Virus record (IMG/VR): IMGVR_UViG_3300021185_002017
Direction: 5' to 3' (one strand)
Length of the DNA stretch: 64,000 nt
Source of the DNA: a virus
Taxonomy: Duplodnaviria > Caudoviricetes
This document shows, piece after piece, positions 14,049 through 45,257 of this stretch (position 1 is its first letter; every line of letters starts with the position of its first letter). The position numbers were made by a program, and so were the translations under genes. The notes beneath the pieces were generated by a model. The model saw only the letters and a list, made by a program, of their open reading frames with translations, searched no databases and was not told the origin of the DNA.

Positions 14049-14074
14049 AAATGATCTCTATCTTTGCAAAAGAT

Positions 14075-14082: not shown

Positions 14083-14143
14083 TACTTAATACATACTTAT
14101 GGAGCTAAACCGAATACAAATTCGTTTTTTGGAGCAAAACTAA

Positions 14144-15775: not shown

Positions 15776-15793
15776 GTTATACTTACTTAAAAG

Positions 15794-15824
15794 AAGGTAC
15801 TAAATACAATTGGTACCTTTTTTT
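15794..15824 (+). terminator. Intrinsic terminator
   Basis: AAGGTAC-12 nt-GTACCTT followed by a T run. Confidence 0.6.
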
Positions 15825-25836: not shown

Positions 25837-26507
25837 TGCAATGAGTAATAGTCTGCTAATCTCATTGCCCATTTATTGCAGTATTCTTCGAATTCGTCAC
25901 CATTAATAACAAAGTCAGCGTATTTGCCTTCTCTGTCGATCATTAAAATAGCAACTTGTTTGATGTTTGTACCAAACATTTCATTGTGTGCTAGTGCGTA
26001 TGCACAGCCTTGCATGAAGTAATCTTCAATCCATTCACGCTTTTTAATCTTTTTAGCAGTCTTGAAGTCTATAATACTTTCAACACCGTTAAACATGCCC
26101 ACAGCATCGCTTGTACCTGCGTATAAGCCTTGAGCTATTAGTGCTACTTCAACACCCCATATCTCATCTACTTGGCTTAAACCTTTGTCGATCATTTCAT
26201 CAACCATGTTTTTAGCCATAATACTTATGTGGTTATTACCTTTGATTTCGTACTCTTCAAGTAATACATATTTTTCTAAAGCATTATGTACTTTGGTACC
26301 TAAGCCTGCACTTTCTTGACTAATTCTGTTTGCTTCAGCATCGCCTACTCGCTTACGCCAGTTAATAAGTGCTGTCTTATCACCAGTATCAGAAAGTACT
26401 GTTGTGACACTTGGCACTGGTTGATTATCATCACCTGTGTATTGGCGTTGTCCGTTTTTTGCTGTTACCCTTTTGAGAGTCGGGTAAGTGAATTTTTCTA
26501 CAAGCAT
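25833..26507 (-). CDS. PD-(D/E)XK exonuclease
   Basis: PSVTTVL, GT.VH, YAGTSD, IIDFKT, Q..AYALA. Confidence 0.85.
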   Translation of the reverse strand: MLVEKFTYPTLKRVTAKNGQRQYTGDDNQPVPSVTTVLSDTGDKTALINWRKRVGDAEANRISQESAGLGTKVHNALEKYVLLEEYEIKGNNHISIMAKNMVDEMIDKGLSQVDEIWGVEVALIAQGLYAGTSDAVGMFNGVESIIDFKTAKKIKKREWIEDYFMQGCAYALAHNEMFGTNIKQVAILMIDREGKYADFVINGDEFEEYCNKWAMRLADYYSLQ

Positions 26508-26610: not shown

Positions 26611-26928
26611 TTACCAACTAATATTCCACTGTAATGCTGTTGCATCGTTTGGATTTGTAATAATACTAACACCGTATCCTAACTTAGTGAAGTAGTTTTT
26701 TACATAGTTAAGTTGATCTAATTTAGTTGGATCTGTTGTAATGTTGTTCCATACATAGTAGTACACATTACTGTTAGTCATTGTAGAATTGTTTACATTT
26801 GCATATAGTATGCCAGCATCAACATTAGCATATACTGCGTTCTCAATAGCAGTTACTTCGTTGTGAATTACAGTATTGTTTCTAGTACTGCTTCGTGCTG
26901 TTTTAGCATTTATAAATATGCCTGGCAT
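26611..26928 (-). CDS. Hypothetical (probably virion) protein
   Basis: 105-aa ORF at the end of the late operon. Confidence 0.7.
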   Translation of the reverse strand: MPGIFINAKTARSSTRNNTVIHNEVTAIENAVYANVDAGILYANVNNSTMTNSNVYYYVWNNITTDPTKLDQLNYVKNYFTKLGYGVSIITNPNDATALQWNISW

Positions 26929-26930
26929 TG

Positions 26931-27269
26931 CTATGCTATCTCCGTGTTCATTGCAGTACTTGCTGCACCTTGAGCTAAGTCAGATACTGTGTCTGCTGCT
27001 TCTTCCCCGTCATCTGTGCTTACTTCGTCGGGTAATTGATTCTTAGTTTTAATGACTTCTCTGTTTACACTACTAGCATGTCCGCTCTTATCAATTGCTG
27101 CAATAAGTTCGTCTGTTGTAGTAACATATCCTTGCTTGGCTAGAAGTGCTCTAAATTGTTCAGTAGGAATATCCGTCTCACCTTTTGCTCCTACTTTTGT
27201 AAGTAGATCTTGAACAGTAAGAATTAAATCGGAAAAATATCCCTCTGATATCACTTCTCTAATTAGCAT
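26931..27269 (-). CDS. Hypothetical protein with capsid-targeting-like leader
   Basis: Starts MLIREVISE. Confidence 0.7.
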   Translation of the reverse strand: MLIREVISEGYFSDLILTVQDLLTKVGAKGETDIPTEQFRALLAKQGYVTTTDELIAAIDKSGHASSVNREVIKTKNQLPDEVSTDDGEEAADTVSDLAQGAASTAMNTEIA

Positions 27270-27270
27270 G

Positions 27271-28578
27271 TTAAACCTCTACAGGTGTTCTGCCTAATGG
27301 TTCTTCTTCTGGGCCTGCCGCTGCTGGTTCGTTAACATCCATTGCTGGCTCTTCTAATCCTACTTCAGGTTCTGCAGGTGCGCCTAAGTCAGCAGTGTCA
27401 CCTAAACCCATATCGTCAGTGTTTACAATTGTGCCTGCGCCGATTAAACCTGCTATAGCATTATCAATGCCATCTTTAGCAAGTTTTGAATTTTCTAAGT
27501 ATCCGCTTAGTAAACCATTAACACTGTCTGCAAAAGTAGCTGCTGCTTGAGCACCCATTTCGCCACGCATTTGATCTGCAATTGCAGGAAGACTTTCATT
27601 CATCATACGACCAATTTCTTCTACATGTCCTTGTATGTCGTCTGCTAATGCTCTTACTGCCATTACAACTTCTGCTTCTTCGATACTTGTACCTTCAACT
27701 TCTTCGTTTAGCATGTCGTCTATAATACTATCAAACATTGTGCTTTCGTTTTTCTTTTCGTCTTCAGTGTCGCCTGTTACTTCGTACTCTTCGCCGTCTA
27801 CTGTAAATTTCTTTTCGCCTTTAGCAATAGCGTCTTTTCTTGCGCCTGTGAATTTGTTTTGCTCTGCTACTTTAGCACCAAACATTTTAATACCGTTTGC
27901 AACTGCATCTTCATCTAAACCGTTTAAGAAACCAACAACTGCGTCTCTACTTTTTTCTGTTACTTTAGCAAAAGATTCTAACTTCTCTTCAATTGCTTCT
28001 AGGCTTTCTGTACCTGTTAATTCAACACCACACTCTTTAGCAAGTTCTCTAAGCAATGAATCGTTAAGGTCTGTTTCTGGGATATACTCGCCTTCTTCTT
28101 CAATACTTTCGTGATTCATACCACATGATTCCAAGTAGTTTTTTGCTGCTGAAAGGATAATTGGCATAACATGTTCATCATCGTATGCAAAACGAGAGTC
28201 CATTCTGTACTGATTCATGCATTCGCCACAAGCCTCGTCTACAGTGTAGCCGCTGTCCATTAAACTACAAACACTAGCATTAATCATTTCTTTCATCTCA
28301 CCATGTGCTGGTGATTCTGCGTACATGCCTTCGCTAATCATAGTTGTAAGAACATCTTTGATGCCTAAAAACTTTGCGTAATCAGGATCTTGTTGAAACT
28401 TAGTTTTACCGCTTTTGATTAAAGCAATACTTTTGTTAGCAGTTTCTAGTAAACTGTCTAATTTTGCTTTCTTAGGAAATCCGGAGGTCTTCAATGACAC
28501 ACCAAATTCTTCCTTTAGCATTTTGTTAACTTTGGCAATCTTCTTTGCCCCGTTTTGGTTGAATTCTTTTAAAAACAT
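27271..28578 (-). CDS. Acidic putative head-core/scaffold-like protein
   Basis: Starts MFLKEF; many xxE sites; late box at 28616-28623. Confidence 0.6.
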   Translation of the reverse strand: MFLKEFNQNGAKKIAKVNKMLKEEFGVSLKTSGFPKKAKLDSLLETANKSIALIKSGKTKFQQDPDYAKFLGIKDVLTTMISEGMYAESPAHGEMKEMINASVCSLMDSGYTVDEACGECMNQYRMDSRFAYDDEHVMPIILSAAKNYLESCGMNHESIEEEGEYIPETDLNDSLLRELAKECGVELTGTESLEAIEEKLESFAKVTEKSRDAVVGFLNGLDEDAVANGIKMFGAKVAEQNKFTGARKDAIAKGEKKFTVDGEEYEVTGDTEDEKKNESTMFDSIIDDMLNEEVEGTSIEEAEVVMAVRALADDIQGHVEEIGRMMNESLPAIADQMRGEMGAQAAATFADSVNGLLSGYLENSKLAKDGIDNAIAGLIGAGTIVNTDDMGLGDTADLGAPAEPEVGLEEPAMDVNEPAAAGPEEEPLGRTPVEV

Positions 28579-28638
28579 TTTTATTAATCCCAGGTATTAA
28601 ATTCTCTATTACTGTTATTTATCATCTTTGTGAACATT

Positions 28639-29028
28639 TTAGTTGAACCGTTTGAGTTCGTCTTTGGTATAATTGAACTTACATATTGTATCAAACAGTC
28701 TTGCTTCAACTACTTGGGATTTTGTAAAGTCTTTTGTGTTTTTTATAGTGTGTCTATAGAACATTATGTCGTTTTTACACCTATAATACTGTCCCATTAG
28801 CCCTTCTAACTTAATTTTAATAGTTATACTAGGTGCTTTTCCTTTATTACGAAGTCTGCATAAGTATGATGCAACACATTTCATTGGAATTTCTGTTGCT
28901 ACTAAAGATTTAGTAATGTGCTCTTGCACAGCAAATGAATCGTTATGTTTGGTTACAACATACACACCTTTTTTAGCAACATTAGTGGCTATAGTGTCTA
29001 ATTGCTTGGTAAGTCTTTGCTTGTTCAT
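28639..29028 (-). CDS. Hypothetical protein
   Basis: Start MNKQRL chosen because a CATAAATA box lies just upstream. Confidence 0.65.
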   Translation of the reverse strand: MNKQRLTKQLDTIATNVAKKGVYVVTKHNDSFAVQEHITKSLVATEIPMKCVASYLCRLRNKGKAPSITIKIKLEGLMGQYYRCKNDIMFYRHTIKNTKDFTKSQVVEARLFDTICKFNYTKDELKRFN

Positions 29029-29051
29029 ATAGGTATTTATGAACTGGTGTT

Positions 29052-29273
29052 CTATAATTTTTGTTTTGCTGAGTATATAATGTAGCACTCACACCCATTT
29101 TTGTTTACTTTATTGAAAATATTTTTTTGATGCATTACATCACAGAGATGTGCATCACGCTCAGACAGTTCATTTAATTTTAAACCGCCAAACAGTTCAG
29201 CCTGATCATATAGTTGTGTTTCAAACTTGTTAATTAGACTTAAGATGTTATCTTTACCTTTTACTGCTTTCAT
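29052..29273 (-). CDS. Small hypothetical protein
   Basis: 73-aa ORF coupled to the upstream stop. Confidence 0.65.
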   Translation of the reverse strand: MKAVKGKDNILSLINKFETQLYDQAELFGGLKLNELSERDAHLCDVMHQKNIFNKVNKNGCECYIIYSAKQKL

Positions 29274-29947
29274 ATCTTTTGCTGATGCCTTGACTTTTTA
29301 GGCTTACCGTATCCGCCTGTTTGTAAAGTAGCCTCGGCATGCATTGCTGCCATGTGCTTCTTATATTTTTTAGTGCCTTTTTTATGTGGGCTTTTGCCTT
29401 CAGGCATAGTATCTTTGATATCTTTAACCATATCAGGATGTCTAAATTTGCGTAAAATCATTGATTCTATTTGTCGTGTTCTTTCTCTAGTAATACCAAA
29501 CATTTTGCCAACATCTTCTAAACTATGTTGGTCCTCACCGTCAAGTCCATATCGTAAGGCTATAAGTTTTCTTTCTGCAGGTTTTAGTGTATCTAACATT
29601 TTAGAAAGTTTTTCATTTCTCTGCCTGTCCCTTATGTCTTTATCTAAGTCTTGATCGTATGTTAAGTCGTCATCGTCGAATGAATCAAAGTCTTGTGCTT
29701 TGTTTACAGGATCTCTATCATCTAAATGTGGCATAGGTTGTTGCCTGTAAGTTTTGCCATCTGGATTATACAGAGATGCTTGTTGATTTGCATTTGCTTC
29801 GCTTGTTTTTTTCTTCTTTTTCTTTTTAGGAGTTGTATTAGCAAACACACTTGCATTAGGTCTTTTTTGCATAGCACCCATAGGAGCTGCAACGGTAGCA
29901 ATACCACCTGCACTAGTTGTTTCTTGAATAATATCGTTGATCTTCAT
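29270..29947 (-). CDS. Putative head-packaged protein carrying a sigma70 region-4 HTH
   Basis: MKINDIIQE leader; LDTLKPAERKLIALRYGLDGEDQHSLEDVGKMFGITRERTRQIESMILRKFRHP. Confidence 0.8.
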   Translation of the reverse strand: MKINDIIQETTSAGGIATVAAPMGAMQKRPNASVFANTTPKKKKKKKTSEANANQQASLYNPDGKTYRQQPMPHLDDRDPVNKAQDFDSFDDDDLTYDQDLDKDIRDRQRNEKLSKMLDTLKPAERKLIALRYGLDGEDQHSLEDVGKMFGITRERTRQIESMILRKFRHPDMVKDIKDTMPEGKSPHKKGTKKYKKHMAAMHAEATLQTGGYGKPKKSRHQQKI

Positions 29948-29968
29948 AGTAGTATTTACCGTTTTTAA

Positions 29969-30505
29969 TTATGTTAGTCTAACGTTTACAATGTCCCAGT
30001 TAATAATACGCCACATATTGTTTAAGTATTTGCCTTTGTCATGTTGGTAATCTAATGCCCAAGCATGTTCCCACCAGTCAACTAACATTGCAATGTCATT
30101 TTTAACTTGATGATTAACTATTGTTTTGATATCACCGGATGTACTCATGTATACCCAGCCGCTACCTTGTATCTTCATTGCTACTTCTTCGAACTGTTCT
30201 TTGAATGTAGCAAAGTCTCCATACTTACTGTCTATAAGTTCTTTACTTGCACCAGTAGGATTATTACTACCACCTGGTGCTTTCAATTGTGGAAAAAATA
30301 TATTGTGTAAGAATGCACCTGCTTCCATAAACTGTGCATCGCCTTTGCCCTCGTTAAATTTTGTAACGTATGCTTTAGCAAGTTTACCATAGTGAAAGTT
30401 AATTGTGTCCTCACTCATAACAGGATCGAGATCGCTTTTACCGTAAGGTAATCTTTCTTGTACAAGTACTTTCTTTTCTTCTGTTAAAAAATCATTTAAG
30501 TTCAC
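29969..30505 (-). CDS. sod: Fe/Mn superoxide dismutase
   Basis: LPY...L.P...T..FHY.K...Y, LHNIFF, GSGW, DWWEHAW..DY; all four metal ligands present. Confidence 0.9.
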   Translation of the reverse strand: MNLNDFLTEEKKVLVQERLPYGKSDLDPVMSEDTINFHYGKLAKAYVTKFNEGKGDAQFMEAGAFLHNIFFPQLKAPGGSNNPTGASKELIDSKYGDFATFKEQFEEVAMKIQGSGWVYMSTSGDIKTIVNHQVKNDIAMLVDWWEHAWALDYQHDKGKYLNNMWRIINWDIVNVRLT

Positions 30506-31398
30506 TTCTTTTTTCCGCCTTTCATGTTAGCACACCAGTGATACATTTTGCCTTTTTCACCACTATACTTTTTAGCCTTTGCTCTTAAACTTGTTACAGA
30601 ACCTTTACAACTAGCACCTGCTTTTTTGACTCTACCAGGCTTGCTTTTGCCTTTCTTCTTACCGTCTGCAAAGTTTTCGTCGATTGCATTTAATAATGCT
30701 TGAAGGTCTTGCATTGCTTCTATTGTTTCGTATATGCTACCGCCAAACTTAACACTTGAAGTTTTCTTCTTTTTCTTCTTTTTCTTTTTCTTGTACGGTG
30801 CTAGTGTACCTATTCCTAAAAATCCTCTACTAACAGGAGCATCCATAGTAGGAGCATCGCCTGGATCAGCACCACCTACATCACCACCTGCATCACCACC
30901 GGAATCGCCTCCGCCTGTTGCTGCACCACCATCACCACCTGCACTTGCACCACCACTGGCTCCACCTGAGCCTCCTGCTCCGGCTCCACCGCCGGCTCCA
31001 CCACCACCGCCTCCGGCGCCGTCTTCGTATGTTTCTTCGTCTCTGGCTTTACTACTGTAATGCTTTATTAATTCTTCTATAGTAGCATCGACTCTAATTG
31101 CTTTAACTTTATCTAAGTCTAATTCTAATGCTACATCATATCTATGATGTCCGTTGACAATAAAATTATTTTTGTCTATAATTATAGGTCTTATACTACC
31201 ATCATCAAAGCCACGCTTTGCTTTATCTTTTAATCCTTTTACTCGTTGCTTTTGCACAGGCTTTAGATTAGATACTGATATGTTTCCTAACTTATATGAG
31301 AAAGGGCCGTCGTCAAGATCAGGTTGCCTAATCTGAGGCATAATCTTTCGCGGGAAGTTTTTTTCTTGCTCCGGCCTTTGTAACTCAGAAAGTTTCAT
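30502..31398 (-). CDS. ParB/Srx-like domain fused to Gly-rich, poly-Lys and basic C-terminal modules
   Basis: LKPVQ...PIIIDKNNFIVNGHHRY; GGAGGG tract; KKKKKKKKKK. Confidence 0.7.
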   Translation of the reverse strand: MKLSELQRPEQEKNFPRKIMPQIRQPDLDDGPFSYKLGNISVSNLKPVQKQRVKGLKDKAKRGFDDGSIRPIIIDKNNFIVNGHHRYDVALELDLDKVKAIRVDATIEELIKHYSSKARDEETYEDGAGGGGGGAGGGAGAGGSGGASGGASAGGDGGAATGGGDSGGDAGGDVGGADPGDAPTMDAPVSRGFLGIGTLAPYKKKKKKKKKKTSSVKFGGSIYETIEAMQDLQALLNAIDENFADGKKKGKSKPGRVKKAGASCKGSVTSLRAKAKKYSGEKGKMYHWCANMKGGKKK

Positions 31399-34300
31399 TA
31401 TCTCATTGATACCTGTACTGCTGGTCCATTCATCTTGTCACCCCAATCCAATGAACCCAATTTAAACTTGTCTAAGTGATTTTTATAATCATCTACATCA
31501 AATGCTAAACTTTTCTTGCCGCCAAGTTTTAAGAACAAGAACATACTAAAGCCTTTTTCTTTGAGTATGTTTGCATAACTGCTGTAAGATATTTCGCCTG
31601 CTAGTGTACTTGCATCCGCTCTATCCATGCCAGTGTAGTTTGCAATCATATAGTTAATCATGCTTTTATCGCCATATTTAAATGTAGCAGTAAATAGTTC
31701 TTGTATGTATGCTTTACCTGCACCTGCTGCAAGTGTGTCTAATTGAGTAGCAATATCCAGGAAGTGTGTTCCTGCTCTACTACCTGCGTTACCACTTGGT
31801 AAACGTTGTGGTCTATCTTCTGGTGCAATTTTAAACTTGTCGTAAACTGCATCTAACTGTGGCTGTCCGTAGTCGGCATTACTATTTTTAAGTCTGCCAC
31901 CACCACTTGACTTCTCACCTTTAACTTCAACTTCGACACCATCAATTTTTAAATCACCTACACTAGCAAATGTAATGTTAGGTGCTAACAGTGCAAGACC
32001 AACTTCGCCTGGTCCTCTATTAGAGCCTTCAATGTTTAGTGCTATGTTAAACAAGTTATCATATAGTTCTGTTATAAATTCTGTACTAACTCCTTCGGCA
32101 CCTTTTAGCCATTGATCCCATGTTGATGCACCGTCTGCCATTAAAACTTTAGTATCAACATAGCTCACTTGTCCGTATGTGGAAAGGAAGTTTTCGATGT
32201 CGTCAAAATCACCCTTAGTATTCATAATTGCTTTTACGAACTCTGGTAGTACACCTTTATAACTGTAGTCTGCTTCTGGTGCTGTTTTCTCTGGCTTTAA
32301 GAAATCTTCAGGGTGTACTCGTTCATGGTTTTCAGCATCTGTTCTCATAAAACGGTAAACTCGTTGTATGAATGCTGGGTTATCTTTTAATTTATCTATA
32401 ATAAAATTGAATCTTTCTTTATCTCTGTCTAAGTCATCTTCCGACAACATGCTTTCTTTAAGTCCTGCTTTTTGTTTAATAGTAGGATGTACTTTGTTTT
32501 GTACAAAGCCTTTGAATATAGAACGCAAATCAGTATCAGGACCTGCACCACTAGCGGCTTCTCTGAAAGCTCTAATCATACTAGGATCAGGTACTACAAA
32601 ATATGCTTCCATTTGTGCTTTTAAATCACTAGCAAGTAACGGAACATTTAGTAACTCTTGTATCTTCTTTTCTGGTGAGTTGTCTGGTACTGCACCTTCT
32701 ACATATTTTGCTTTTTTACCAGACTTATTAGGGTGTTCAAAACCTTTACCTTTCTTTTTATATGCTTCGTTGATTTTATTACTGTCAACTTTGTTCAATA
32801 AGTTTAATTGCTCTTCTAGTGGCAACTTGTCAAACTTGTTAAATGTACTTTCTTTACTCATCCTTCTAATCCTATCTCTTTGAGCTTGGGCGTCAGCTTC
32901 GCTACTATGTACTGTACTAACATCGTCTCCTAGACTACCATCAGCATTTAGTCTAAAATAGTTTCCGCCACTTACTTTATAATTTTTTTCTATGTATTCT
33001 TTAGCCGCTTTAACCGCAGCCGCCCATCTTTCTGTGCCTATTGCTTTTTCATTATCTGGGCGCCAGTTGTGATTGCTGTCAAATTGATCATAAACTTTCT
33101 GTAACAAGTTTACACCTTGATTGCCTACGCCACGCTCTATTTTTAAGTAGTCTGCTAGATTACCCCAATTTGTGCTATTTGCTACACCGTTTGAAGATGC
33201 TCCTTCAAGTCCTTCTACATCAGCGGCGTCAACCATACCCGATATTGCGTTCTTTGCTTTTTGTTGTTTTTCTTGGTCTGCTTTTGCCTTCTTAGAAAGT
33301 TCTGGATTATTTACATGCCACGAAGCTGCTGCCATTGTATCAAGCGGTTCGCCGTATGGTCCTTCTGCTTCTTCACTTGGAAGTAATGGCTTGAACTGAC
33401 CCATTCCTTCTCTGCCATCACCTAAGGATGGCTCAAATTTGACATTTCTTTGCTTTAATAAATTTTTAATTTCACCATCATTTGAATTTATGTTTATGTA
33501 ATTACTTTCGTCTGCTACTCCACTAAAACCAGCATCGTAAACTTGCTGGAATTTACGAAGTACTTTCATTGCTACTTTCTCTCTCCATGTACCTTTATGT
33601 GCATCATTTGCTAATATATCACTAGCAACTAATGCCTGATGATAATGAGCAGTAGGTATACTTAGTATGTTTCCAAGTCTACTTTGTACTTTACTTTGTG
33701 GGCTTTGTAATTCTTGGGCAATATCACGGTCAGTGATCATATCTTCGCCGGCTTTAAGATTTCTATAATACGAACTTGAAACAAATATTGAACCACCAAA
33801 TTTAAATACTGGAAGTGTACCAATGTGTGGAGACCCGTGTTTTTTCTTAAACTGATCCTGTTTTACATCTAATTTTTTCTTTTTATCAATGGCTGTTTGT
33901 TGAGAATCAAATCCAAACTCTTGTGCAATTTTATCAAACCCTTCTAAGAAATTTTTTATATTAGTGGTACGCTCGCCAATTAACTTTTGTATATACTCGT
34001 CATCGTAGTAATCAGGAGTTCCTTTCTTTTTATCGTAATATCTTTCGTATGAAGATCTTAAATAATCTTGCATTGTATTTCTAAATCTGTGTGCAACTGG
34101 TTCACTAAACGCATCTGGTCTGCCTCTAACTTCATCAATAGCATTTTCCAATGTCTCTGCAGCATATTTGCTCATTGCAAAATATGCAGGACCTTCACGC
34201 ACATCTTCATGTCTAGTGCCTTTTACTTGAGGATGGTTATCAACCATATAATTGTCTTCGGCTTTATTTTGCTTAACTAGTTTTTCTGCAAGATCAGCAA

Positions 34301-37274: not shown

Positions 37275-37280
37275 CTTGTA

Positions 37281-37577
37281 TTAACGCCTTCTTCTTACTG
37301 GTCTATTGAGTGATTTTAACCTCTTTGCCATAGGATTAAATCTTTTAGTTCTACGAGCTTTACGAATCATTCGTTTGCCCATTTTGGCTTTTGTTCTTCT
37401 CAGTGTCATACGCTTTTTGAGATCAATTGGCTTTGCACATTGACTTGGATTAGCAACAACTCTGCCTGCTCGTGGACCGCTTGTACAACGGACAGCACGT
37501 TTAATCTTGTTGCCCATACGGCGCCAAACCATACGAGCTTCGAGGATTTCTCCCTCTACTATTTCATCAAGTCTCAT
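37281..37577 (-). CDS. Very basic small protein (putative DNA-condensing head protein)
   Basis: True start likely MRLDEIVEGEILE; 33 of the following 85 residues are Arg/Lys. Confidence 0.7.
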   Translation of the reverse strand: MRLDEIVEGEILEARMVWRRMGNKIKRAVRCTSGPRAGRVVANPSQCAKPIDLKKRMTLRRTKAKMGKRMIRKARRTKRFNPMAKRLKSLNRPVRRRR

Positions 37578-37825
37578 CCTAATAAGCTCTCTAATAATAT
37601 TGCTATTGTACCTAGCAATGAAGTAACAGTAACAGCAACTATGCCAATAATCCATCCTTCCATTTTATTTAATCTTTGCTTAGTATCATCTTTAAATTCA
37701 CGCAACTCAGTTGTTATTGCTTCAATACGAAGCATGTCAGCAATGATGTGTGCTTCGATATTTCCTGAGTATGCCGGTAGTGATTCAGCAGCTTGATCTA
37801 ACTCTGGTTTTGTTTTCTTTGGCAT
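37574..37825 (-). CDS. Coiled-coil plus single-TM small protein
   Basis: C-terminal hydrophobic helix WIIGIVAVTVTSLLGTIAILL. Confidence 0.7.
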   Translation of the reverse strand: MPKKTKPELDQAAESLPAYSGNIEAHIIADMLRIEAITTELREFKDDTKQRLNKMEGWIIGIVAVTVTSLLGTIAILLESLLG

Positions 37826-37826
37826 G

Positions 37827-38231
37827 TTATAATAAATCCTGTTTTGTGAATTCCATATTTACTGAATTCTTTGTATCTATTGTGCCTGCATTTAATACAA
37901 TACCGTCAAGTTCATCAACTAATGTAGTAATGCTATGCACACTCTCACGCTCAAAAGCAAATTTAAAAATCCAGCCAGCACCTGTCATAGTTGGTGCTCC
38001 ATATCCTTCTAGTACATTAGCACCTACTCCGCTTAATGCAACTGGCTTGTTCATGATAATTGGCATAGCTCTTAAGCCAATAACTTGAACAACACTTTCA
38101 AAATCTTTTTGCGTATTGTTTGTAAAATCACCAGTATGTGTAATGTCTAATGATGTATATAATGTGTAAAATTCTATGTTTCCTGTTACAACTTCTTGGC
38201 TGTTCATTGCGCCTGATCTATTTAATGTCAT
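37827..38231 (-). CDS. Putative virion protein
   Basis: GGAG SD before MTLNRSG; late box at 38253-38260. Confidence 0.7.
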   Translation of the reverse strand: MTLNRSGAMNSQEVVTGNIEFYTLYTSLDITHTGDFTNNTQKDFESVVQVIGLRAMPIIMNKPVALSGVGANVLEGYGAPTMTGAGWIFKFAFERESVHSITTLVDELDGIVLNAGTIDTKNSVNMEFTKQDLL

Positions 38232-38299
38232 GTGTGTCTCCGATATATACACTATTTATCATCAAACTGTTAACAGGTATCTAAAAATTTTTGCTGGTC

Positions 38300-38328
38300 A
38301 AAAAAAAGCACTCCGAAGAGTGCTCTTT
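38300..38328 (-). terminator. Intrinsic terminator with cUUCGg loop
   Basis: AGCACTC TTCG GAGTGCT followed by T7. Confidence 0.85.
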
Positions 38329-38373
38329 AATGTGACGCCTTGCAACATCACGTTCCTAAGGTAGTAAGGAATT

Positions 38374-38667
38374 CTAGCCGGAAAAGGAAGTTACCCCAGC
38401 CCATGCACAGCCAGTAACACCGAATGCGTTAGTAGCATCATCAGCAATTGCTGGGCCACCTTCGTATGCAATGTATATTGCTGTAGTTGCATCTACTGAG
38501 AAACCTTCAATACCAGTAATAGTGTAGTTTTGTACAGTTATTGCTTGTATTAAAGCATCCATTTTCGCTTGGGTCATGTTTGTTGAAACTGTTGCAGTTG
38601 CAATATGTATTACTCTACCGAAACCGTTTAGGTCTTCAGTAAAACCATTTACTCTTGTTTGTGCCAT
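38374..38667 (-). CDS. Small MAQ-start virion protein 1
   Basis: Own late box (38713-38720), GGAG SD and terminator. Confidence 0.75.
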   Translation of the reverse strand: MAQTRVNGFTEDLNGFGRVIHIATATVSTNMTQAKMDALIQAITVQNYTITGIEGFSVDATTAIYIAYEGGPAIADDATNAFGVTGCAWAGVTSFSG

Positions 38668-38731
38668 TTTGTTACTCCGATTTGAACGGGCTTACCTGTT
38701 GCCCTATGCAAATATTTATCTTATTATAGTC

Positions 38732-38762
38732 AAAAAAAATCCCCACATAGTGAGGATTTTTT
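38732..38762 (-). terminator. Intrinsic terminator
   Basis: ATCCTCAC TAT GTGGGGAT plus T run. Confidence 0.8.
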
Positions 38763-38779
38763 AAACTAAATGTTAAAAC

Positions 38780-39028
38780 TTAGCCAAAAGTTACAACTAA
38801 TGTTGCGCCTGTTAATGATGGTGTTGCGCCAGCGCCTTGTAAAGCGATGTGACAACCGTCATTTGCTACGTCATCTTCAATTGCTACAACGATAAAGCCT
38901 TCTGCTTGTGCTTCTGCTGTCACGTCTGCTACTGAGTTTGTTGATACATCAGTTACTGACATAATGTGAGTAGTTCCTACTAGGCCGTTAGCTGCTCTAA
39001 CTGCTGCGTTTGGGTTTGCTTGTGCCAT
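38780..39028 (-). CDS. Small MAQ-start virion protein 2
   Basis: Own late box (39078-39085), AGGAG SD and terminator. Confidence 0.75.
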   Translation of the reverse strand: MAQANPNAAVRAANGLVGTTHIMSVTDVSTNSVADVTAEAQAEGFIVVAIEDDVANDGCHIALQGAGATPSLTGATLVVTFG

Positions 39029-39096
39029 GGTTATTCTCCTAAATATAATGTAGAGCTAATTCTTTACTCTATGTACTTATTTATCAATCTAGTCAT

Positions 39097-39122
39097 AAAA
39101 AAAGGCAGTTAAACTGCCTTTT
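39097..39122 (-). terminator. Intrinsic terminator
   Basis: AAGGCAGT TTA ACTGCCTT plus T run. Confidence 0.8.
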
Positions 39123-39143
39123 AATATCTAAAGTTAGTTAAAC

Positions 39144-39404
39144 TTAGAATGATACATCAGCAATAACGTGTGCTGCAATGTCACCGTTTGCTAAGTTATC
39201 TGCACCTTCAACTATCATTTTAACTGTATCGCCTGATACTGCGCCAACTTTAAGTACTGAAAGGTTTAAGTTTTGAACAGAGCTAACTAATGCTGTTAAT
39301 TGAGTTGCTGAAATATTTCCTGATTGTTGTTGAAAACTTTTAAGAAATACATCTTTACCAATAAACTCGCCTGCTGCTGCTGATCTTCTATCTGCTTGTG
39401 CCAT
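39144..39404 (-). CDS. Small MAQ-start virion protein 3
   Basis: Own late box (39435-39442), AGGAG SD and terminator. Confidence 0.75.
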   Translation of the reverse strand: MAQADRRSAAAGEFIGKDVFLKSFQQQSGNISATQLTALVSSVQNLNLSVLKVGAVSGDTVKMIVEGADNLANGDIAAHVIADVSF

Positions 39405-39445
39405 GTTAATTCTCCTGAATTGAATATATGCTATTATTTATCAAT

Positions 39446-40003
39446 CTATGCTTTAAAATCCGATTTATTTATACTAAGAGCGTCTAAGTTTCTGGCTTGT
39501 GATTTTGCTTTTCCTAATGCTGAACTAAATGTTGTTCCAAGATCTGTTGTGTTTAGACCTGCTGTTGGATTTAATTTCTTTAATATTCTTTGTCTTGTGT
39601 TGCCATCACCGGCAGTATAATCTTTGACTGCATTCTGGTTACCTACTTGGGCACCTCGTTTTTTCTTAGGCTCTGCTGACAGTTTAACTGGAGAATCAGT
39701 ATTTGTTTTATCAGATTTCTTTTTAGATTTTCTGTCTTTTGTTTGTTTCTTGCCAGTTACATATTCACTGTCTGGGTACATATCTTGTACTGCTGCTTTG
39801 ATTGCTGTTCCTGCATTATAATTTGGCTTATTAAAATATTGTAAAGCATTCATAACAACTGAAGCCTTATGGAATTGCATTGCCCACTGATACTTGTTTC
39901 CGTTAGGATCTAAAAACTCGCCGTCAAATTCTTGATTAAGTAATTCAAGTGAATCTTTAGTACCTTGGGTTTCACGCTCTGCTATAATTTCATCAATTCT
40001 CAT
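39446..40003 (-). CDS. Putative head-packaged protein
   Basis: Starts MRIDEIIAE; basic central region. Confidence 0.7.
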   Translation of the reverse strand: MRIDEIIAERETQGTKDSLELLNQEFDGEFLDPNGNKYQWAMQFHKASVVMNALQYFNKPNYNAGTAIKAAVQDMYPDSEYVTGKKQTKDRKSKKKSDKTNTDSPVKLSAEPKKKRGAQVGNQNAVKDYTAGDGNTRQRILKKLNPTAGLNTTDLGTTFSSALGKAKSQARNLDALSINKSDFKA

Positions 40004-40806
40004 GTTTGTTTCTTCCTTCTACCAGCAGCCCAATAACCTGCTATAGCACCAATACCGGTACCTGCTTTTTTAACTGTATCAGGTTTTTCTTTAGCAAGTT
40101 TTGTTAATTTCTTAGCGGCATACCTACCTGCGGCTGCACCAATTGCTGCACCTGCTACTTTTTGTGCAAAACTAGTTCTTGGTACATCATATGCTGGTTC
40201 TGTGCTATACTTCCTATATTTAACCATAGTAGACATAGGTGTAAGTAATTCACTTCCTCTTCCTATGCTACGCATTGTTTGTAATATTTTTGTTACTACT
40301 AGTTGTCTACTTGAATACTTTAAATTACCCCAATCAGTAATAAATCTACGGTATTGTTTATACTTAGAATCTGTAATTTGTAGTTGTGCTTCTAGTCTAA
40401 AGAAGTAACTAACTGCTTCATTTTTTCTATCAGAGCCGTTTGCAATTTTTTTCATAAACATAAAATGCTTTCTAGCATCAAAGTTTATATTTTGTAAAAA
40501 AGAAGTACTTGCTACTCTGTTCTTTAATGTTATTTTATTACTCTTAGGATTTGCAATTGTAAAACATAGCATGTATAAGTCAGTAGCACTAGTTCTAAAT
40601 GTAGTATATCCACCATACTGGGAGGTTTGCTTTGCATAATTTGCTGCATAGCCATGTTGTACATCATCCTGTACCATCATATAAAGTGCAATGGTATTTA
40701 AATAAGTTAGATTAGCAACATCTCTACCAGTGAGCTGACGCATATTGCCAGAAGATCTGTATAATCTACTTTCAGATATTTCTTGATCTATAAATTCTAA
40801 TTCCAT
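40000..40806 (-). CDS. Putative head-packaged protein
   Basis: Starts MELEFIDQEISE; basic C-terminus. Confidence 0.7.
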   Translation of the reverse strand: MELEFIDQEISESRLYRSSGNMRQLTGRDVANLTYLNTIALYMMVQDDVQHGYAANYAKQTSQYGGYTTFRTSATDLYMLCFTIANPKSNKITLKNRVASTSFLQNINFDARKHFMFMKKIANGSDRKNEAVSYFFRLEAQLQITDSKYKQYRRFITDWGNLKYSSRQLVVTKILQTMRSIGRGSELLTPMSTMVKYRKYSTEPAYDVPRTSFAQKVAGAAIGAAAGRYAAKKLTKLAKEKPDTVKKAGTGIGAIAGYWAAGRRKKQT

Positions 40807-42095
40807 TATCCTGTTGGCTTCCCTGTTCCAAAGTTTAATCTACTGAATTCCATTCTGTCAACTAGTTTGAGAGCATTACCAATTCTGTCAATAGCAACAA
40901 AACCTTCTCCGCTTGTGGCTTTAAATCCTTCGCCATCGGCTGCAAAAGTTTGTGTGCTTTGTAATTTTCCTAACTTAGCAATAATGGCCAACTTTGCTTT
41001 GATCAACATCATGTATAAATCATACACTGCTGTGATTTCTCCTGCATGTTGTTTAATGAATGTTACAGTCTGAACCATTTTTTCAGTTTTAGCATCTTTA
41101 GTTGCTTGTCTTTTTACTTTGTCAATTTCTTTTGTAGACTTATCAATCCATTTTACAACAAATTCTTTTGCTAAACTTTCAGGGGAGCCAAAGTCTCCTG
41201 CTCTAATCTTATTGTTTACTGTGGCTTTTAGTTGTTGTAAGAAATCTTTGCCCACTAAGTCGTTGCCTTTCTCTAACCAATTAAACACATCTTTACTAAT
41301 TTGCTTAGTGTAAGTGTCAGCGGCTTTGATAGTTGCTAATACTTCTGCTGATTCTTCAGCAGTCATTGTTACTGTACCTGATACATCCTTAATGTTTGCA
41401 TCTGTTTGCCAAACACTAGATGTACTGCCTAATCTATTTGAATCGAATCCAAATGTTGCTGTTGTATCTGCTAGTGTTGGTCCGCCTGCGTACTCTGTGT
41501 GCCACACTATACCTAGCTCAGCACTTAGCATTTGCTGTGCTAGTTCACTGTCCTTTGGTAAAGCATAAGCAAGAGTATTAGGCTTAAAATATATTAAGGC
41601 TTCACCATCGTGATTCATTTCTTTGATGTCACCTTTTTGAAACATCAAGTCGCCTTGTGCAACTGTGTCCCATTTTAATTTGCTTAAATGTTTTAAACAA
41701 TTTTTTAATTTGATTCGTAAACCACTGCCGTCTTTGTCGCCTCTGTCTGCGTGGTACTTGTCGATGTCTTCTTCAGTGAAGTTAAGTTTTGCTTTTCCTG
41801 CAAACACACCTTTAGTACCTACAAAGAATTTGCCAGTTGCTGGATCTTTACCTGCTACGATTGCAGGTGAACCGTCCCACTTAACAGTCATATCAAATGC
41901 ACCTTTTGCGTTACCTTCTAACATTTGATGCAAACTATACAAGTAATCTACTGCTTCTTTGGCTCCTTGATATCCTTTGTTAAAGATATTATCTTCAAGG
42001 TGTTCCATGTGAGTGTTCTTGCCGTCTGCTTCTAACAACAAGCTCTCATTGATTACTCTAGTTACTAGAGGTTTTGATATCTCTATAAAACGCAT
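40806..42095 (-). CDS. Conserved T4-like phage protein with ligase/nucleotidyltransferase-like motifs (DUF6267-like)
   Basis: NTHMEHLED, VKWDGSPA, FFVGTK, EGFVAID, KLVDR. Confidence 0.6.
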   Translation of the reverse strand: MRFIEISKPLVTRVINESLLLEADGKNTHMEHLEDNIFNKGYQGAKEAVDYLYSLHQMLEGNAKGAFDMTVKWDGSPAIVAGKDPATGKFFVGTKGVFAGKAKLNFTEEDIDKYHADRGDKDGSGLRIKLKNCLKHLSKLKWDTVAQGDLMFQKGDIKEMNHDGEALIYFKPNTLAYALPKDSELAQQMLSAELGIVWHTEYAGGPTLADTTATFGFDSNRLGSTSSVWQTDANIKDVSGTVTMTAEESAEVLATIKAADTYTKQISKDVFNWLEKGNDLVGKDFLQQLKATVNNKIRAGDFGSPESLAKEFVVKWIDKSTKEIDKVKRQATKDAKTEKMVQTVTFIKQHAGEITAVYDLYMMLIKAKLAIIAKLGKLQSTQTFAADGEGFKATSGEGFVAIDRIGNALKLVDRMEFSRLNFGTGKPTG

Positions 42096-44960
42096 TTAGA
42101 TGCCTGCTAACTTTTTCATTTCTGACATTTGTACAACATCAGTTGGTATTAGCATAACATGTGATGTTACACTTTCTGAAATTAATACTTCGTATCCTAT
42201 ATCTGCCCAAGTAAGTCCTGCATGTTCTAGTATAGCACACATGTGTTCGTATGCTTCTGCTCTCATGCTTCTTGCCATTTTAACAAAAGTTGCGTATGCT
42301 TGTGGATCTGATTTTGCTAATCCACCTTTCTTCATTACTGGAGCTGCCGCTTGTATAAATTTATCTGCATCGTATCCTTTACTTTTTAGTTCACTTAATT
42401 TAGCAACTAATGCTTTTGCAGATGCTAAGTCACCTTGTAGTGTCTTAGACTGTAACATTTTTAACTCTGCTGTAGTAGGACCTGGTACTGCTTTAGGAGC
42501 ACCTTGTGCTGGCTGTTGTCCTTGTGGTTGTGCTGGCTGTTCACCTGCTTGTGGTTGTGCTGGTTGTCCTGGTTGTGCTGGTTGCTCTGGTGTTCCTGGT
42601 TCCTCTGGTGTTCCTGGTTCTGCTTGTTGTCCGCCACCGGACTTACCAAACATTCCACCAATTGCTGCTCCTACTACGCCTGCTGCTTTCTTTCCTAAAC
42701 TTGCTTTAGGATCTGATCTTGTTTTTTGTGCTAAGCCTGGTGTTTTACCTGATACCCAATCTTTTGCTCTTTGTATTAAACCAGGATTCTTTAATGCAGT
42801 ACCGTCACCGTTTCTGCCATACTTTGCCATTAAGTCTTGTTGCATTGCACCTTGTGCAGATCTACCTTGTGGGTCTTTCCAGCCTGTGCCGTCAAATGTA
42901 AACTTAATGCCATTAATTGTTTCTGACTTGCCTACTTTCAATTCTGGTAAATTTGAATCTTCTGCATCGCCATCTTGTGCTTGTTGTACACCTTTGCCTA
43001 TTGCGCCACTACCACCTGCAGAACCCCCTGTAGGACCGCTTGTAGTGCCCTGTGCGCCTGTTTGTTGTCCTCCGGCACCTTGTGCACCACCTTGAGGTTG
43101 ATCAGGCTGTGTGCCGCCCTGTGGTTGTTCTGGTTGCCCACCCTGTGGTTGTTCTGGTTGTTCTGGTTGTTCTGGTTGTTCTGGTTGTTCTGGTTGTTCA
43201 CCTTGTGGTTGCTCTGGCTGTTCGCCTTCTGGCTCTTCTTCTGGTGCTACTGCTTCTACACCAGCCGCTTTAAATGCCGCATCAACTTCTTCTTTTGTTG
43301 CACCTGCATTCTTTTGCAAGAATTTAGCAACATCATCTGACTCTGTTGGTGATTTAGCCGCTGTATAATCTGCTTGTAATTTCTCAGGATCTATTGCACC
43401 TTGCATACCTGTTATTGCTGCTATCTTATTTGTAAATGCTTTTACTGGAGCACTGTTAAGAATTGGCTTGATAACAGTATTAACTGCGGCAGTACCAACT
43501 GCTTTGGCTGCTTGTCCTACTTTGCCTACTGCTGACTTATATGCACCACCAACTTTTTTAGCAATGCCACCTAAATCTGGTGCTTCGCTCATTGTTTGTT
43601 CTATGTTTTCGATTAATTTATGCTCTTGTAAATGCTCCATGCCTTCGATAATAACTTTATTATCTTTAACATGTTTGTTGTACCATTCCAGCATAACAAA
43701 TACTGCTACTTCTTCACCTACTTGTTCAACTAATGCATCAAAGTCTTCGCCAACTTCTTCTGATAATACATTTTTCCACTCAGGATGTACAAAACTTTGA
43801 GTCAAGTTGTCTGCTACATCACCACCTACTTCGCTTTTTACTGCTCCACCAACTGATGCTGCAATTTGATTTCTAAATTCTCCAGCTTCTGCGGAAAATA
43901 ATCCATCCATGCCGCCGCCATTGGCTGCAACAATTTGATTGTATTCTGCAAATTCTTGTGGATCCATTAGCACACCCATTGATGAACCAAAGCCTTCTGC
44001 CTTCATTACAAGTTTGCCGTCTGTGATTTCAGCACTTCGTGCCATCATAGATTCGTATTTGTCTGCATACTCAGGACCAACATTCATTCTTCCTAAGAGT
44101 TCTTCGGTTGCTGTAGGCTGAGCTGAGAATAATTCATCTGCTAACGCATCTTCATCAGCATTTAGGTTATCGATAAACGAATCAATTTCGTCCATGCTCA
44201 TTCCTGCGTCTTGTCCTGCACTTGCTAAGTCAACTTCTTGAGCTGGGAAAGATGTTGACATTAAGTTTTCATCACCTTCTATTGGTACATCTCCAAATCC
44301 ACTTAGTATATTACCTGCAAGTCCTGCAATAGCACCTTTGGCTGCGCCTACGGCTGCTGTTTTAGCAATGTCTGCTACAGTTCCACCTGCGGCTGCTTTG
44401 ATAGCACTGTCTACTACTGTTCTAAATATTGCTGTTGTTCCTATAATACCAAGTACTGCTGGTCCACCTGCTCCTGCGACACCCATTCCAATAGTGATAA
44501 CTGTCATCATCAAGCCTTTGAATGCTGCAATGTCTTCATCATTTTCAATTGACTGAGCACCTTTTTGGATAGCGGCAACAACTGCTGATGCATTTTTGCC
44601 TGCAGGGTCTGGTAATTTTGCAACCATTACTTTTAATCTTTCAATAGGTACTGCGTTACCTACTTTAGATAGTATTGCTTTAAGTTTGGGATTACCAGTT
44701 ATTTTTGCAAATAATGGTGTTAGTTGAAGTTGAGCTTTCTTTGCTAGTTGAGCAGTGTTTCCACCTTCGCCACGATTAGTAACTAAGCTCTGAAATACAC
44801 CTTGTATTTGCTCTGGCGCAAGTGCTGCCTCGTTGAGTTTAGTTAACTCTCTAACTATTGTATTTAAATCTTCTCTAACAGAAACAGGCAGTTCTTGCCA
44901 GGCTTCGTTTATCTTAATATTTTCTGTTATTAGATCAATATCTTTACGAATTAGATTCAT
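42096..44960 (-). CDS. 954-aa putative head/ejection protein with Pro-Gln repeats
   Basis: Starts MNLIRKDIDLITE; Ala/Gly-rich; (EQP)n and (QPAQPG)n. Confidence 0.7.
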   Translation of the reverse strand: MNLIRKDIDLITENIKINEAWQELPVSVREDLNTIVRELTKLNEAALAPEQIQGVFQSLVTNRGEGGNTAQLAKKAQLQLTPLFAKITGNPKLKAILSKVGNAVPIERLKVMVAKLPDPAGKNASAVVAAIQKGAQSIENDEDIAAFKGLMMTVITIGMGVAGAGGPAVLGIIGTTAIFRTVVDSAIKAAAGGTVADIAKTAAVGAAKGAIAGLAGNILSGFGDVPIEGDENLMSTSFPAQEVDLASAGQDAGMSMDEIDSFIDNLNADEDALADELFSAQPTATEELLGRMNVGPEYADKYESMMARSAEITDGKLVMKAEGFGSSMGVLMDPQEFAEYNQIVAANGGGMDGLFSAEAGEFRNQIAASVGGAVKSEVGGDVADNLTQSFVHPEWKNVLSEEVGEDFDALVEQVGEEVAVFVMLEWYNKHVKDNKVIIEGMEHLQEHKLIENIEQTMSEAPDLGGIAKKVGGAYKSAVGKVGQAAKAVGTAAVNTVIKPILNSAPVKAFTNKIAAITGMQGAIDPEKLQADYTAAKSPTESDDVAKFLQKNAGATKEEVDAAFKAAGVEAVAPEEEPEGEQPEQPQGEQPEQPEQPEQPEQPEQPQGGQPEQPQGGTQPDQPQGGAQGAGGQQTGAQGTTSGPTGGSAGGSGAIGKGVQQAQDGDAEDSNLPELKVGKSETINGIKFTFDGTGWKDPQGRSAQGAMQQDLMAKYGRNGDGTALKNPGLIQRAKDWVSGKTPGLAQKTRSDPKASLGKKAAGVVGAAIGGMFGKSGGGQQAEPGTPEEPGTPEQPAQPGQPAQPQAGEQPAQPQGQQPAQGAPKAVPGPTTAELKMLQSKTLQGDLASAKALVAKLSELKSKGYDADKFIQAAAPVMKKGGLAKSDPQAYATFVKMARSMRAEAYEHMCAILEHAGLTWADIGYEVLISESVTSHVMLIPTDVVQMSEMKKLAGI
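42505..42625. repeat. Imperfect 9/18-bp coding tandem repeat
   Basis: Repeated tgtgctggctgt / ctggtgttcctggt units. Confidence 0.7.
43146..43199. repeat. Perfect 9-bp tandem repeat x6 (TGGTTGTTC)
   Basis: Directly visible; encodes EQP repeats on the minus strand. Confidence 0.9.
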
Positions 44961-45219
44961 TCTTTTCTTCCCGTTGGCTCTCTTTAATAACTTTTTTTAT
45001 GCCTCGGGAGAATTTGGAAGAATCTTTAGCACGAATGCTATTGACTATACGATTGGTTAAATCCTTTGCTTGATCTTCGCTGTAATGTGCTTCGATTCGT
45101 TCAATTAAATGTATTACACTTTCAATAAGGTGTTCGCCACGGTTTTCAACCGCATGATTTCTGTCTCTGTCTACAGAAATAAGATTTAATTCTTCTATTA
45201 TACTGCGAGTTTTACGCAC
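44944..45219 (-). CDS. Small hypothetical late protein
   Basis: Late box at 45248-45255; GGAG SD. Confidence 0.7.
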   Translation of the reverse strand: MRKTRSIIEELNLISVDRDRNHAVENRGEHLIESVIHLIERIEAHYSEDQAKDLTNRIVNSIRAKDSSKFSRGIKKVIKESQREEKNESNS

Positions 45220-45257
45220 ATTACGCTCCTGTTAATAGGCTTAACACTATTTATCAA

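Follow-up and report, generated by a model that had tools for sequence, protein, structure and literature searches.

Putative T4-like capsid-targeting leaders and predicted enzymatic cargo in a late-type gene block of a putative marine jumbo phage

In the record of phage T4, the internal proteins (IPs) IPII and IPIII start with MKTYQEFIAE and IPI with MKTFKEF...TITE; targeting depends on residues 4 and 7 of the T4 leader, and cleavage on residues 8 and 10 (PMC9026906). Phages T2, T6, and their relatives encode other basic proteins that start like this capsid-targeting sequence (CTS) and lie in hyperplastic internal-protein loci (PMC9026906). In phiKZ, 201phi2-1, and SPN3US, ejection or inner-body proteins are processed at S/A-x-Glu by a gp21-related protease (PMC5694885). 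Polyvalent proteins, for which delivery with the DNA has been proposed, are found in phages and conjugative elements (Iyer et al. 2017, PMC5512222), and the chlorovirus PBCV-1 packages in its virion a late-expressed Cu/Zn superoxide dismutase (SOD) that is thought to lower early superoxide (PMC7019647). The virion proteome of the Pseudomonas jumbo phage PA5oct includes 93 virion-associated products among ~445 genes, and its description discusses neither leaders, processing, nor SOD (PMC7318152). In this study, we analyzed a 64,000-nucleotide stretch of DNA from a member of the Caudoviricetes (IMG/VR record IMGVR_UViG_3300021185_002017, hereafter the window), in which all genes are encoded on the minus strand. 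An 18-kb block of this window (26611-45219) encodes roughly twenty proteins, about 10 of which bear a similar short N-terminal leader. By analogy with T4, we consider it probable (about 0.7) that this block is transcribed late and encodes virion proteins that use a T4-type capsid-targeting/propeptide system with an enlarged enzymatic cargo.

The kinship of the phage was read mainly from the DUF6267 protein of the block (40806-42095). This protein matches 80 viral contigs, the nearest of which are 95-62% identical and are pieces of very large genomes, and it matches the T4-like marine phages Melnitz and HTVC008M and cyanomyoviruses at ~39% identity. Because one 92-kb piece among the closest relatives was rated 25% complete and another, G004, is 340 kb in length and 91% complete, the window phage is predicted to be a T4-related marine jumbo myovirus of ~360 kb that belongs to the PA5oct/Rak2/121Q-related group. 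No isolate phage was matched when the block was searched by megablast. The whole-block comparison took in five relatives, among them G002 (95% identical), G004 (63% identical), G003, and G006.

Leaders, module junctions, and virion-associated homologues

The leaders in the block take the form M-x-h-x-[DE]-h-h-x-E, or a variant of 12-17 residues with an [LIV]-x-E end. They are amphipathic, with hydrophobic residues at positions -6, -3, and -2 and a terminal Glu. Nine of them are clear, most being 8-9 residues long, and these have hydrophobic residues at T4 positions 4, 7, and 8 together with the [LI]-x-Glu end. The preliminary description of this DNA had quoted nine leaders, all of which were found at real minus-strand gene starts, and its overall observation of a shared leader was confirmed. 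Weakly leader-like N-termini occur on the 435-, 298-, and 91-amino-acid (aa) proteins, and eight block genes lack a leader (three paralogues starting with MAQ and the 141-, 83-, 129-, 73-, and 105-aa genes).

Enrichment of the leader in the block, which the preliminary description had proposed as a check, was examined with the motif h..hh.E (end within the first 16 residues), derived from T4 IPII and IPIII and not from the window. Among the 19 block genes, five carry this motif, whereas the 51 genes elsewhere in the window have none (Fisher p ~0.001); the background is 0.002 per position. When a strict leader regular expression was applied to every open reading frame (ORF) of 30 aa or more that starts with ATG in the 340-kb G004, five of its seven matches lay inside the homologous block, and among the 108,787 residues of the called G004 proteins it occurred once past residue 45. 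Codon choice varies between leaders, so that their likeness lies at the peptide level and not in a DNA repeat; on the same ground, we rejected an origin of the leaders by gene conversion or by repetition of DNA.

It had also been expected that cargo domains would swap among relatives while leaders persist, and this was borne out in the relatives compared for the protein with a sigma-70 region 4 (sigma-4) domain, for a basic module, and for the modules of a giant 1958-aa protein. In the G002 orthologue of the sigma-4 protein (20638-21147), residues 1-40 are kept at 95% identity, together with the basic tail, while the middle is shorter and no Sigma70_r4 match was found, which points to the sigma-4 domain as a recent insertion into a leader-bearing carrier. 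The domain is present in the window phage and absent from the orthologue of this 95%-identical relative; its gain or loss would be very recent. The basic module (57 residues, NFADGKKKGK...) is 90-95% identical throughout. In G002 and G004 it is a separate 65-aa gene starting with MKIVEITE followed by NF, in the window and G003 it stands after the ParB-like domain, behind ...LNAIDE and again starting with NF, and in G006 it forms the C-terminal end of a different protein. The boundary of the module always lies directly behind I-x-E. Likewise, the C-terminal module of the giant protein has dozens of stand-alone homologues of ~352 aa, the leaders of which (MRYREFIRE, MRFKELIIE, MLIKQIINE, MRLYELF...NE, and others) align exactly over the internal, leader-like junction ...LKESMLSE(1612) followed by DD.

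Other cargo families show leaders of the same type. Stand-alone amidoligases start with MISFKQFLTE, MRFAEIISE, MKIQNILHE, or MKFNEIASDLQE. In marine T4-like contigs encoding DUF6267 proteins that are 40-43% identical, a 10-mer in T4 register (MKRLRTYITE, MKKFNSFLAE, or MISFKEFLKE) stands directly before an invariant KNTHMEHLED; the pattern of these starts is M-x-x-[LF]-x-x-[YF]-[IL]-x-E, and Melnitz behaves likewise. This suggests that marine T4-like phages as a group may package a ligase-like DUF6267 enzyme. In fast-evolving cargo, the leader is better kept than the body. Across four relatives, the leader of the 185-aa protein is 44-78% identical and its body 20-34%, and the orthologues start with MRIDEIIILE, MRINEIIE, MKISDIILE, and MKIYEITE. 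A Pfam search of ten PA5oct block proteins and ten cargo proteins of the relatives found almost no families.

Two block proteins match PHROGs families annotated as 'virion structural protein', which were traced by tblastn to PA5oct and to 121Q/Rak2-type phages. The gene order of primase, helicase, a block (15 genes in PA5oct), exonuclease, a structural protein with an Mtd_N start, and ribonucleotide reductase is shared with PA5oct. Of the PA5oct syntenic genes gp259-gp245, 11 of 15 carry a virion note from tandem mass spectrometry with electrospray ionization (ESI-MS/MS), compared with 93 of 445 genome-wide. BLASTP identified homologues of five window proteins among those of the PA5oct block. 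The PA5oct proteins gp245, gp246, gp247, gp250, and the SOD gp223, all homologous to window proteins, are ESI-MS/MS-noted, as are the leader-bearing gp249 and gp254, which have no BLASTP homologue in the window. Leaders of PA5oct proteins include (GTG) KIKDILVE, MFLKDVKITE, MRLDEIQSK, and MNKIKLEQILKE.

The head module of PA5oct follows the T4 order portal-gp67-gp68-gp21-gp22-gp23. Its gp333 (82921-83142, NC_071039), in the gp67 position, starts with MKINDIITE and is positive in mass spectrometry (MS); the neighboring gp332 has ...LDLLLNE, and gp330, the putative scaffold in the scaffold position, has ...FEHILNE and is MS-negative. The window is without a head module, and the presence of a prohead protease was read in relatives, where a gp21-type Peptidase_S77 protease is encoded by both G004 (E 6e-25) and PA5oct (gp331, E 7e-25).

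The SOD comparison is the most telling single case. The PA5oct SOD gp223 (172979-173527, NC_071039) lies away from the block, has MNDSIKKYISIAE at its start, ahead of the SOD fold, and was detected by MS, whereas the SOD of the jumbo Vibrio phage 2.275.O has no leader extension and sits among early-type genes (topoisomerase and ribosomal-protein genes). The PA5oct SOD gene adjoins a ClpS-like gene.

Gene content and predicted cargo

The preliminary description placed the leader ORFs behind TAAATA late boxes. The boxes themselves were upheld: GATAAATA, which differs by one base from TATAAATA, the late promoter of T4, has 11 occurrences in the window where 4.8 would be expected, six of the 11 lie in the block, and all 11 stand upstream of genes in gene orientation. 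These boxes head operons, and most leader genes are internal operon members that are translationally coupled, so that the statement does not hold gene by gene. The box at 45248-45255 heads the operon of the 91-aa, 954-aa, DUF6267, 268-aa, and 185-aa proteins; the other block boxes (39435, 39078, 38713, 38253, and 28616, minus strand) each precede the first gene of an operon.

The cargo domains named in the preliminary description proved real by Pfam or PHROGs matches (Sigma70_r4, Sod_Fe_N with Sod_Fe_C, Amidoligase_2, DUF6267, and ParB-like). The SOD is a 178-aa Fe/Mn enzyme (29969-30505) with a 9-residue leader, (GTG) NLNDFLTE, followed by E, and its GTG start overlaps the stop of the ParB-like gene. 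It matches Sod_Fe_N (E 6e-9) and Sod_Fe_C (E 4e-22); the N-domain is shortened and the fold begins at about residue 17. When aligned with the FeSOD 8avm (E 1e-26), the His, His, Asp, and His metal-ligand columns coincide. ATG-started orthologues in the relatives begin with MKLHDFLTE, MKVNDFLTE, and MKLNEFLTE.

The sigma-4 protein (225 aa, basic; 29270-29947) bears the leader MKINDIIQE followed by TTSAGGIATV, a Sigma70_r4 domain at residues 111-181 (nucleotides 29405-29617, E 3e-13), and a basic tail. Its domain matches RpoD region 4 (4g6d) with E 9e-17. Sigma regions 2 and 3 were not found in this protein by Pfam, and the PDB matches span residues 79-187 only, which indicates a stand-alone region 4 domain and not a sigma factor. 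The PDB matches that reach furthest upstream (residue 79) are the SigA chains 8h3v_G and 8gzg_F.

The ParB-like protein (298 aa, MKLSE... start; 30502-31398; PHROGs ParB-like, E ~1e-9) comprises a ParB/Srx-like N-domain (NGHHR), a Gly-rich linker, and a poly-Lys run, and its junction ...LNAIDE(241) is followed by the 57-residue basic module (nucleotides 30505-30675). Directly upstream, the 1958-aa multi-domain protein (31398-37274) starts with the leader MKAKDIRTLKSLISE followed by Y and contains an acidic insert, a Pfam Amidoligase_2 domain (residues 423-535, nucleotides 35670-36008, E 5.8e-5), and a variable middle. Its C-terminal domain (residues 1613-1958, 346 residues, nucleotides 31401-32438) has an invariant E, D, and E-x-K; the structure model has a predicted local distance difference test (pLDDT) score of 83.9, and its best matches by two methods, which are weak, are the restriction enzymes HinP1I and HhaI. 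We assign this module with moderate confidence to a PD-(D/E)XK-type, restriction-endonuclease-like fold. The protein would thus carry two unrelated predicted enzymatic domains among late or virion-type genes. No MPTase or other peptidase family was found in it by Pfam or PHROGs, and phmmer against the PDB gave no match. In relatives, the protein varies from 1622 to 2199 aa and the modules differ. A stand-alone, leader-bearing version of the nuclease-like module lies on a 58.8-kb TARA scaffold, a contig of another T4-like phage, where it adjoins a curli-type module (CsgF, CsgG, curlin repeats, and FecR) and T4 gp13/gp15 neck genes.

The DUF6267 protein (429 aa, E 4e-99 to its family) carries the leader MRFIEISKPLVTRVINE followed by SLLLE. 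It has a predicted ligase-like (covalent nucleotidyltransferase) fold, in which motif I, KxDG, is present and KWDG is invariant. An hhalign comparison with gp217, an MS-positive 'putative DNA ligase' of PA5oct, showed no relationship, and PA5oct therefore supplies no virion evidence for DUF6267. In the syntenic post-helicase block of Melnitz (13634-15586) and HTVC008M (14392-16182), a 650- or 596-aa protein starts with MKKFSEIIE or MKTLKELL, respectively, and contains an FGRxNPPTxGH motif typical of HxGH nucleotidyltransferases; it may be a further tagged enzyme.

Several leader-bearing proteins have no assigned activity. The 954-aa protein (42096-44960) begins at a real gene start with the leader MNLIRKDIDLITE followed by N, and contains long P/E/Q-rich repeats and, around residues 149-180, a hydrophobic, transmembrane-like segment; it matches no family in Pfam or PHROGs. 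Its conservation is confined to the last ~215-320 residues, the N-terminal and central parts being hypervariable: the length ranges from 322 to 954 aa among relatives, and even against the 95%-identical relative, the first two thirds of the protein show no relationship. The basic 268-aa protein (isoelectric point, pI, 10; 40000-40806) has the leader MELEFIDQEISE followed by SRLYR, and the boundary between E and SRL(Y/F)R is kept in relatives. It is followed by the basic 185-aa protein (39446-40003; leader MRIDEIIAE). The 98-aa protein (37281-37577) is very basic (pI 12, 35% K+R), has the leader MRLDEIVE followed by GEILE, and is coupled to its upstream neighbor, its ATG at 37577 overlapping the upstream stop (ATGA). 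By these features it is the block protein that comes closest to the small, basic internal proteins of T4. PA5oct gp254, which occupies the corresponding place in its block, has a MRLDEIQSK start, and is MS-positive, shows no sequence match to it by BLASTP. The 112-aa acidic protein (26931-27269) has the leader MLIREVISE followed by G and is a homologue of PA5oct gp246, which starts with (GTG) KIKDILVE and is MS-positive.

Among the weakly leader-like proteins, the first of the block (91 aa, 44944-45219) starts with (GTG) RKTRSIIEE and matches the 'virion structural protein' family phrog_11854 (E 6e-18); its homologues are PA5oct gp259 and proteins of 121Q/Asteriusvirus-like jumbo phages. The acidic 435-aa protein (pI 4.3, MFLKEF start; 27271-28578) has its own GATAAATA box, matches phrog_14154, also a 'virion structural protein', and is a homologue of the MS-positive PA5oct gp247 (MFLKDVKITE start).

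The leaderless genes include the three tandem MAQ... paralogues (86, 82, and 97 aa; 38374-39404), each of which is preceded by a separate GATAAATA box and has a strong ribosome-binding site (AGGAG). Relatives encode one to three copies, and these proteins are probably abundant late proteins and possibly virion components. The 141-aa protein (37827-38252) is a homologue of PA5oct gp250 (E 2.5e-26), which is ESI-MS/MS-noted. The 83-aa protein (37574-37825) has a C-terminal hydrophobic helix and is kept in relatives, as are two small basic proteins of 73 and 129 aa (28639-29273), for which no family match was found. The last gene of the block encodes a 105-aa protein (26611-26928), a homologue of the MS-positive PA5oct gp245 (E 9e-20). 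Outside the block, a DnaB-like, gp41-type helicase (45258-46640, Pfam DnaB_C) forms the upstream flank and occupies the equal position in PA5oct, Melnitz, HTVC008M, and E9.1, and an exonuclease-like protein (25833-26507) forms the downstream flank and is 44% identical to the PA5oct 'exonuclease' at the equal position.

Besides this helicase, the window encodes a Toprim primase, a class I ribonucleotide reductase, and 11 tRNA genes (3253-11813, minus strand), the last in three clusters with small genes interspersed. Three paralogues (3596-4465, 5647-6528, and 18101-18871, minus strand) share an N-terminal F-[AV]-[IF]-G-C-S-F-T motif that resembles the SGNH/GDSL hydrolase motif. Genes similar to them occur in relatives beside the helicase-primase region and near the portal gene.

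Packaging, delivery, and alternative explanations

In the mechanism that we propose, the leader would dock each precursor onto the prohead core, and the gp21-type prohead protease (Peptidase_S77) would cut after [LIV]-x-Glu and leave the mature protein inside the head. The leader-like junctions at E1612 of the 1958-aa protein and E241 of the ParB-like protein would probably be cut likewise into separate pieces. The cargo kit, consisting of the Fe/Mn SOD, the sigma-70 region 4 domain, the ParB/Srx-like domain, the DUF6267 ligase-like protein, the amidoligase, the restriction-endonuclease-like module, and small basic IP-like proteins, would be ejected with the DNA and act before phage transcription, as suggested by T4 IPI* and Alt and by phiKZ-type phages (PMC5694885). 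Targeting, cleavage, head residence, and co-ejection are all inferred from these analogies. The reading of the leader as a capsid-loading tag, first made in the preliminary description, is supported in part by the T4 leader likeness, the gp21-type protease in relatives, the PA5oct virion MS, and the cargo swaps; the delivery of active cargo for host takeover or counter-defence stays a proposal.

Several observations weigh against this reading. The virion MS evidence comes from PA5oct homologues, and the window phage is known from sequence alone. The PA5oct MS list includes enzymes that its authors call virion-unrelated (PMC7318152), and MS detection is therefore no proof of packaging. Over the whole PA5oct genome, matches to a loose leader regular expression are not enriched in MS-detected proteins (5 of the 22 annotated matches versus 93 of 445, 21%), and the PA5oct proteins gp213 and gp077 are MS-negative despite a strict leader. 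The block does not consist of tagged cargo alone, as several of its leaderless proteins correspond to virion proteins of PA5oct. Most leaders here have 8-9 residues, one fewer than the 10 of T4. DUF6267 homologues in 466 phage records are annotated solely as hypothetical and never as structural. Finally, the small cargo proteins are only weakly depleted in internal [LI]xE sites (2 observed versus 7.5 expected, p ~0.02, composition-corrected by shuffling).

One alternative is that the tagged proteins are building blocks of the prohead core, scaffold, or inner body, in which the leader and the [LI]xE sites serve assembly or degradation, and that the enzymes are cut up, expelled, or inert instead of being delivered in working form. 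The 12 [LI]xE sites of the 435-aa protein and the 29 of the giant protein (19.4 expected) resemble the situation of T4 gp22, gp67, and gp68 (PMC5694885), the PA5oct core protein in the gp67 position bears a like leader, and the putative scaffold gp330 is leader-bearing and MS-negative, as a degraded scaffold would be. Such a role fits the 435-aa protein and parts of the giant protein, but not the site-free SOD, sigma-4, and basic proteins. No [LI]xE site occurs beyond the leader in the SOD, the sigma-4 protein, or the 185- and 268-aa proteins, which would therefore survive intact; moreover, the SOD metal ligands are kept, the KxDG motif of DUF6267 is invariant, and the PA5oct SOD and gp246, gp247, gp249, and gp254 are present in mature virions. 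As an account of the tagged proteins at large, we regard this alternative as unlikely.

It is less likely still that the N-terminus is a tag for recognition outside the capsid, for example by a modifying enzyme, as with leaders like those of ribosomally synthesized and post-translationally modified peptides (RiPPs), by a chaperone or Clp adaptor, or for localization in the cell, and that its likeness to the T4 CTS is convergent. The ClpS-like neighbor of the PA5oct SOD gene and the strict leaders of the MS-undetected gp213 and gp077 would agree with such a tag. However, Pfam and PHROGs find no radical-SAM, peptidase, or other candidate partner gene in the block, the end of the tag is the cleavage motif of a protease family that the lineage encodes, and the tag is found on a protein in a head-core position, while the PA5oct block is MS-positive. 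Chance resemblance, or a translation-initiation or composition bias of AT-rich late genes, could draw on the noticeable chance rate of the loose motif (25 of 509 PA5oct ORFs, many of them tiny early genes), but it is close to refuted by the statistics and the module boundaries, given that none of the 51 non-block window genes matches, in G004 the strict form is found almost nowhere outside the block, orthologues keep their leaders although their bodies diverge, and module boundaries coincide with the terminal Glu.

Beyond capsid loading itself, a wider proposal can be made tentatively, at somewhat less than even odds: that the T4-related jumbo lineage, and marine T4-like phages through DUF6267, may pack a changeable enzyme kit by a tag readable from sequence, including a working SOD, a sigma-4 decoy, an RNA/DNA-ligase-like repair enzyme, an amidoligase, and a nuclease, released by the protease from single proteins and polyproteins and injected before transcription. 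If true, the injected proteome of uncultured phages would be predictable from sequence, the widespread DUF6267 family of marine T4-like phages would gain a likely place of action, and the packaged SOD and sigma region 4 fragment would be candidates for new early-takeover mechanisms. In T4, Alt and three small internal proteins are known to bear the tag, and here it would extend to a wider and fast-changing enzyme set in an abundant, uncultured marine jumbo lineage. The concrete evidence lies in identical modules that form a leader-bearing gene of their own in some cases and in others are joined behind a leader-like cut site, and PA5oct, a cultivable relative with existing virion MS data, makes the capsid-loading reading directly testable.

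The principle is that of T4. The extension to PA5oct-related marine jumbo phages, the nature of the cargo, the leader-delimited polyproteins, and the DUF6267 tag seem unreported in the literature searched; searches on DUF6267, cyanophage CTS, and SOD in bacteriophage virions found no report, which is not proof of absence.

Comparison with known systems

PA5oct is the nearest comparison. It has the syntenic helicase-to-exonuclease block with five block homologues, and its leader-bearing proteins and SOD were detected in virions, whereas its block is shorter (~10 kb) and is without the DUF6267, giant-protein, sigma-4, and ParB cargo.

The proteins of the window block resemble T4 IPI, IPII, IPIII, and Alt in their short N-terminal propeptide, with the hydrophobic spacing of MKTYQEFIAE and a terminal [LI]-x-Glu. 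As in T4, some of the cargo is small and basic (98 aa, pI 12), the genes are predicted to be late, a gp21-type protease is encoded in relatives, and Alt provides a precedent for enzymatic cargo. Different from T4, where the leader has 10 residues, leaders here mostly have 8-9 or 12-17 residues; about 10 tagged genes lie in one 18-kb block beside a helicase gene and are known only as sequence; the SOD, sigma region 4, ParB-like, ligase-like, amidoligase, and nuclease-like cargo has no T4 counterpart; and the large proteins hold internal leader-like junctions. Like the hyperplastic loci of T-even phages, the block combines a constant leader with exchangeable, fast-evolving cargo in close relatives, but here whole enzyme domains swap (sigma-4, ParB, and the nuclease module) and modules shift between stand-alone and fused forms.

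The phiKZ-like phages are also jumbo phages, with many internal head proteins cut after Glu by a T4-related prohead protease, a cleavage that is known there and predicted here. However, their propeptides are mostly longer than 100 residues and end in A/S-x-E, and they package a virion RNA polymerase, whereas the leaders here are of T4 length. As in polyvalent proteins, a giant protein of a predicted late gene joins unrelated enzymatic domains, and ParB-like domains occur beside virion genes; in contrast to them, the 1958-aa protein has no MPTase or autopeptidase by Pfam, and processing by the prohead protease at leader-like junctions is proposed instead. The SOD of PBCV-1 is a late-expressed enzyme packaged in the virion, as is predicted for the SOD here, but it comes from a virus of a eukaryotic host, belongs to the unrelated Cu/Zn family and not to the Fe/Mn family found here, and has no known targeting propeptide.

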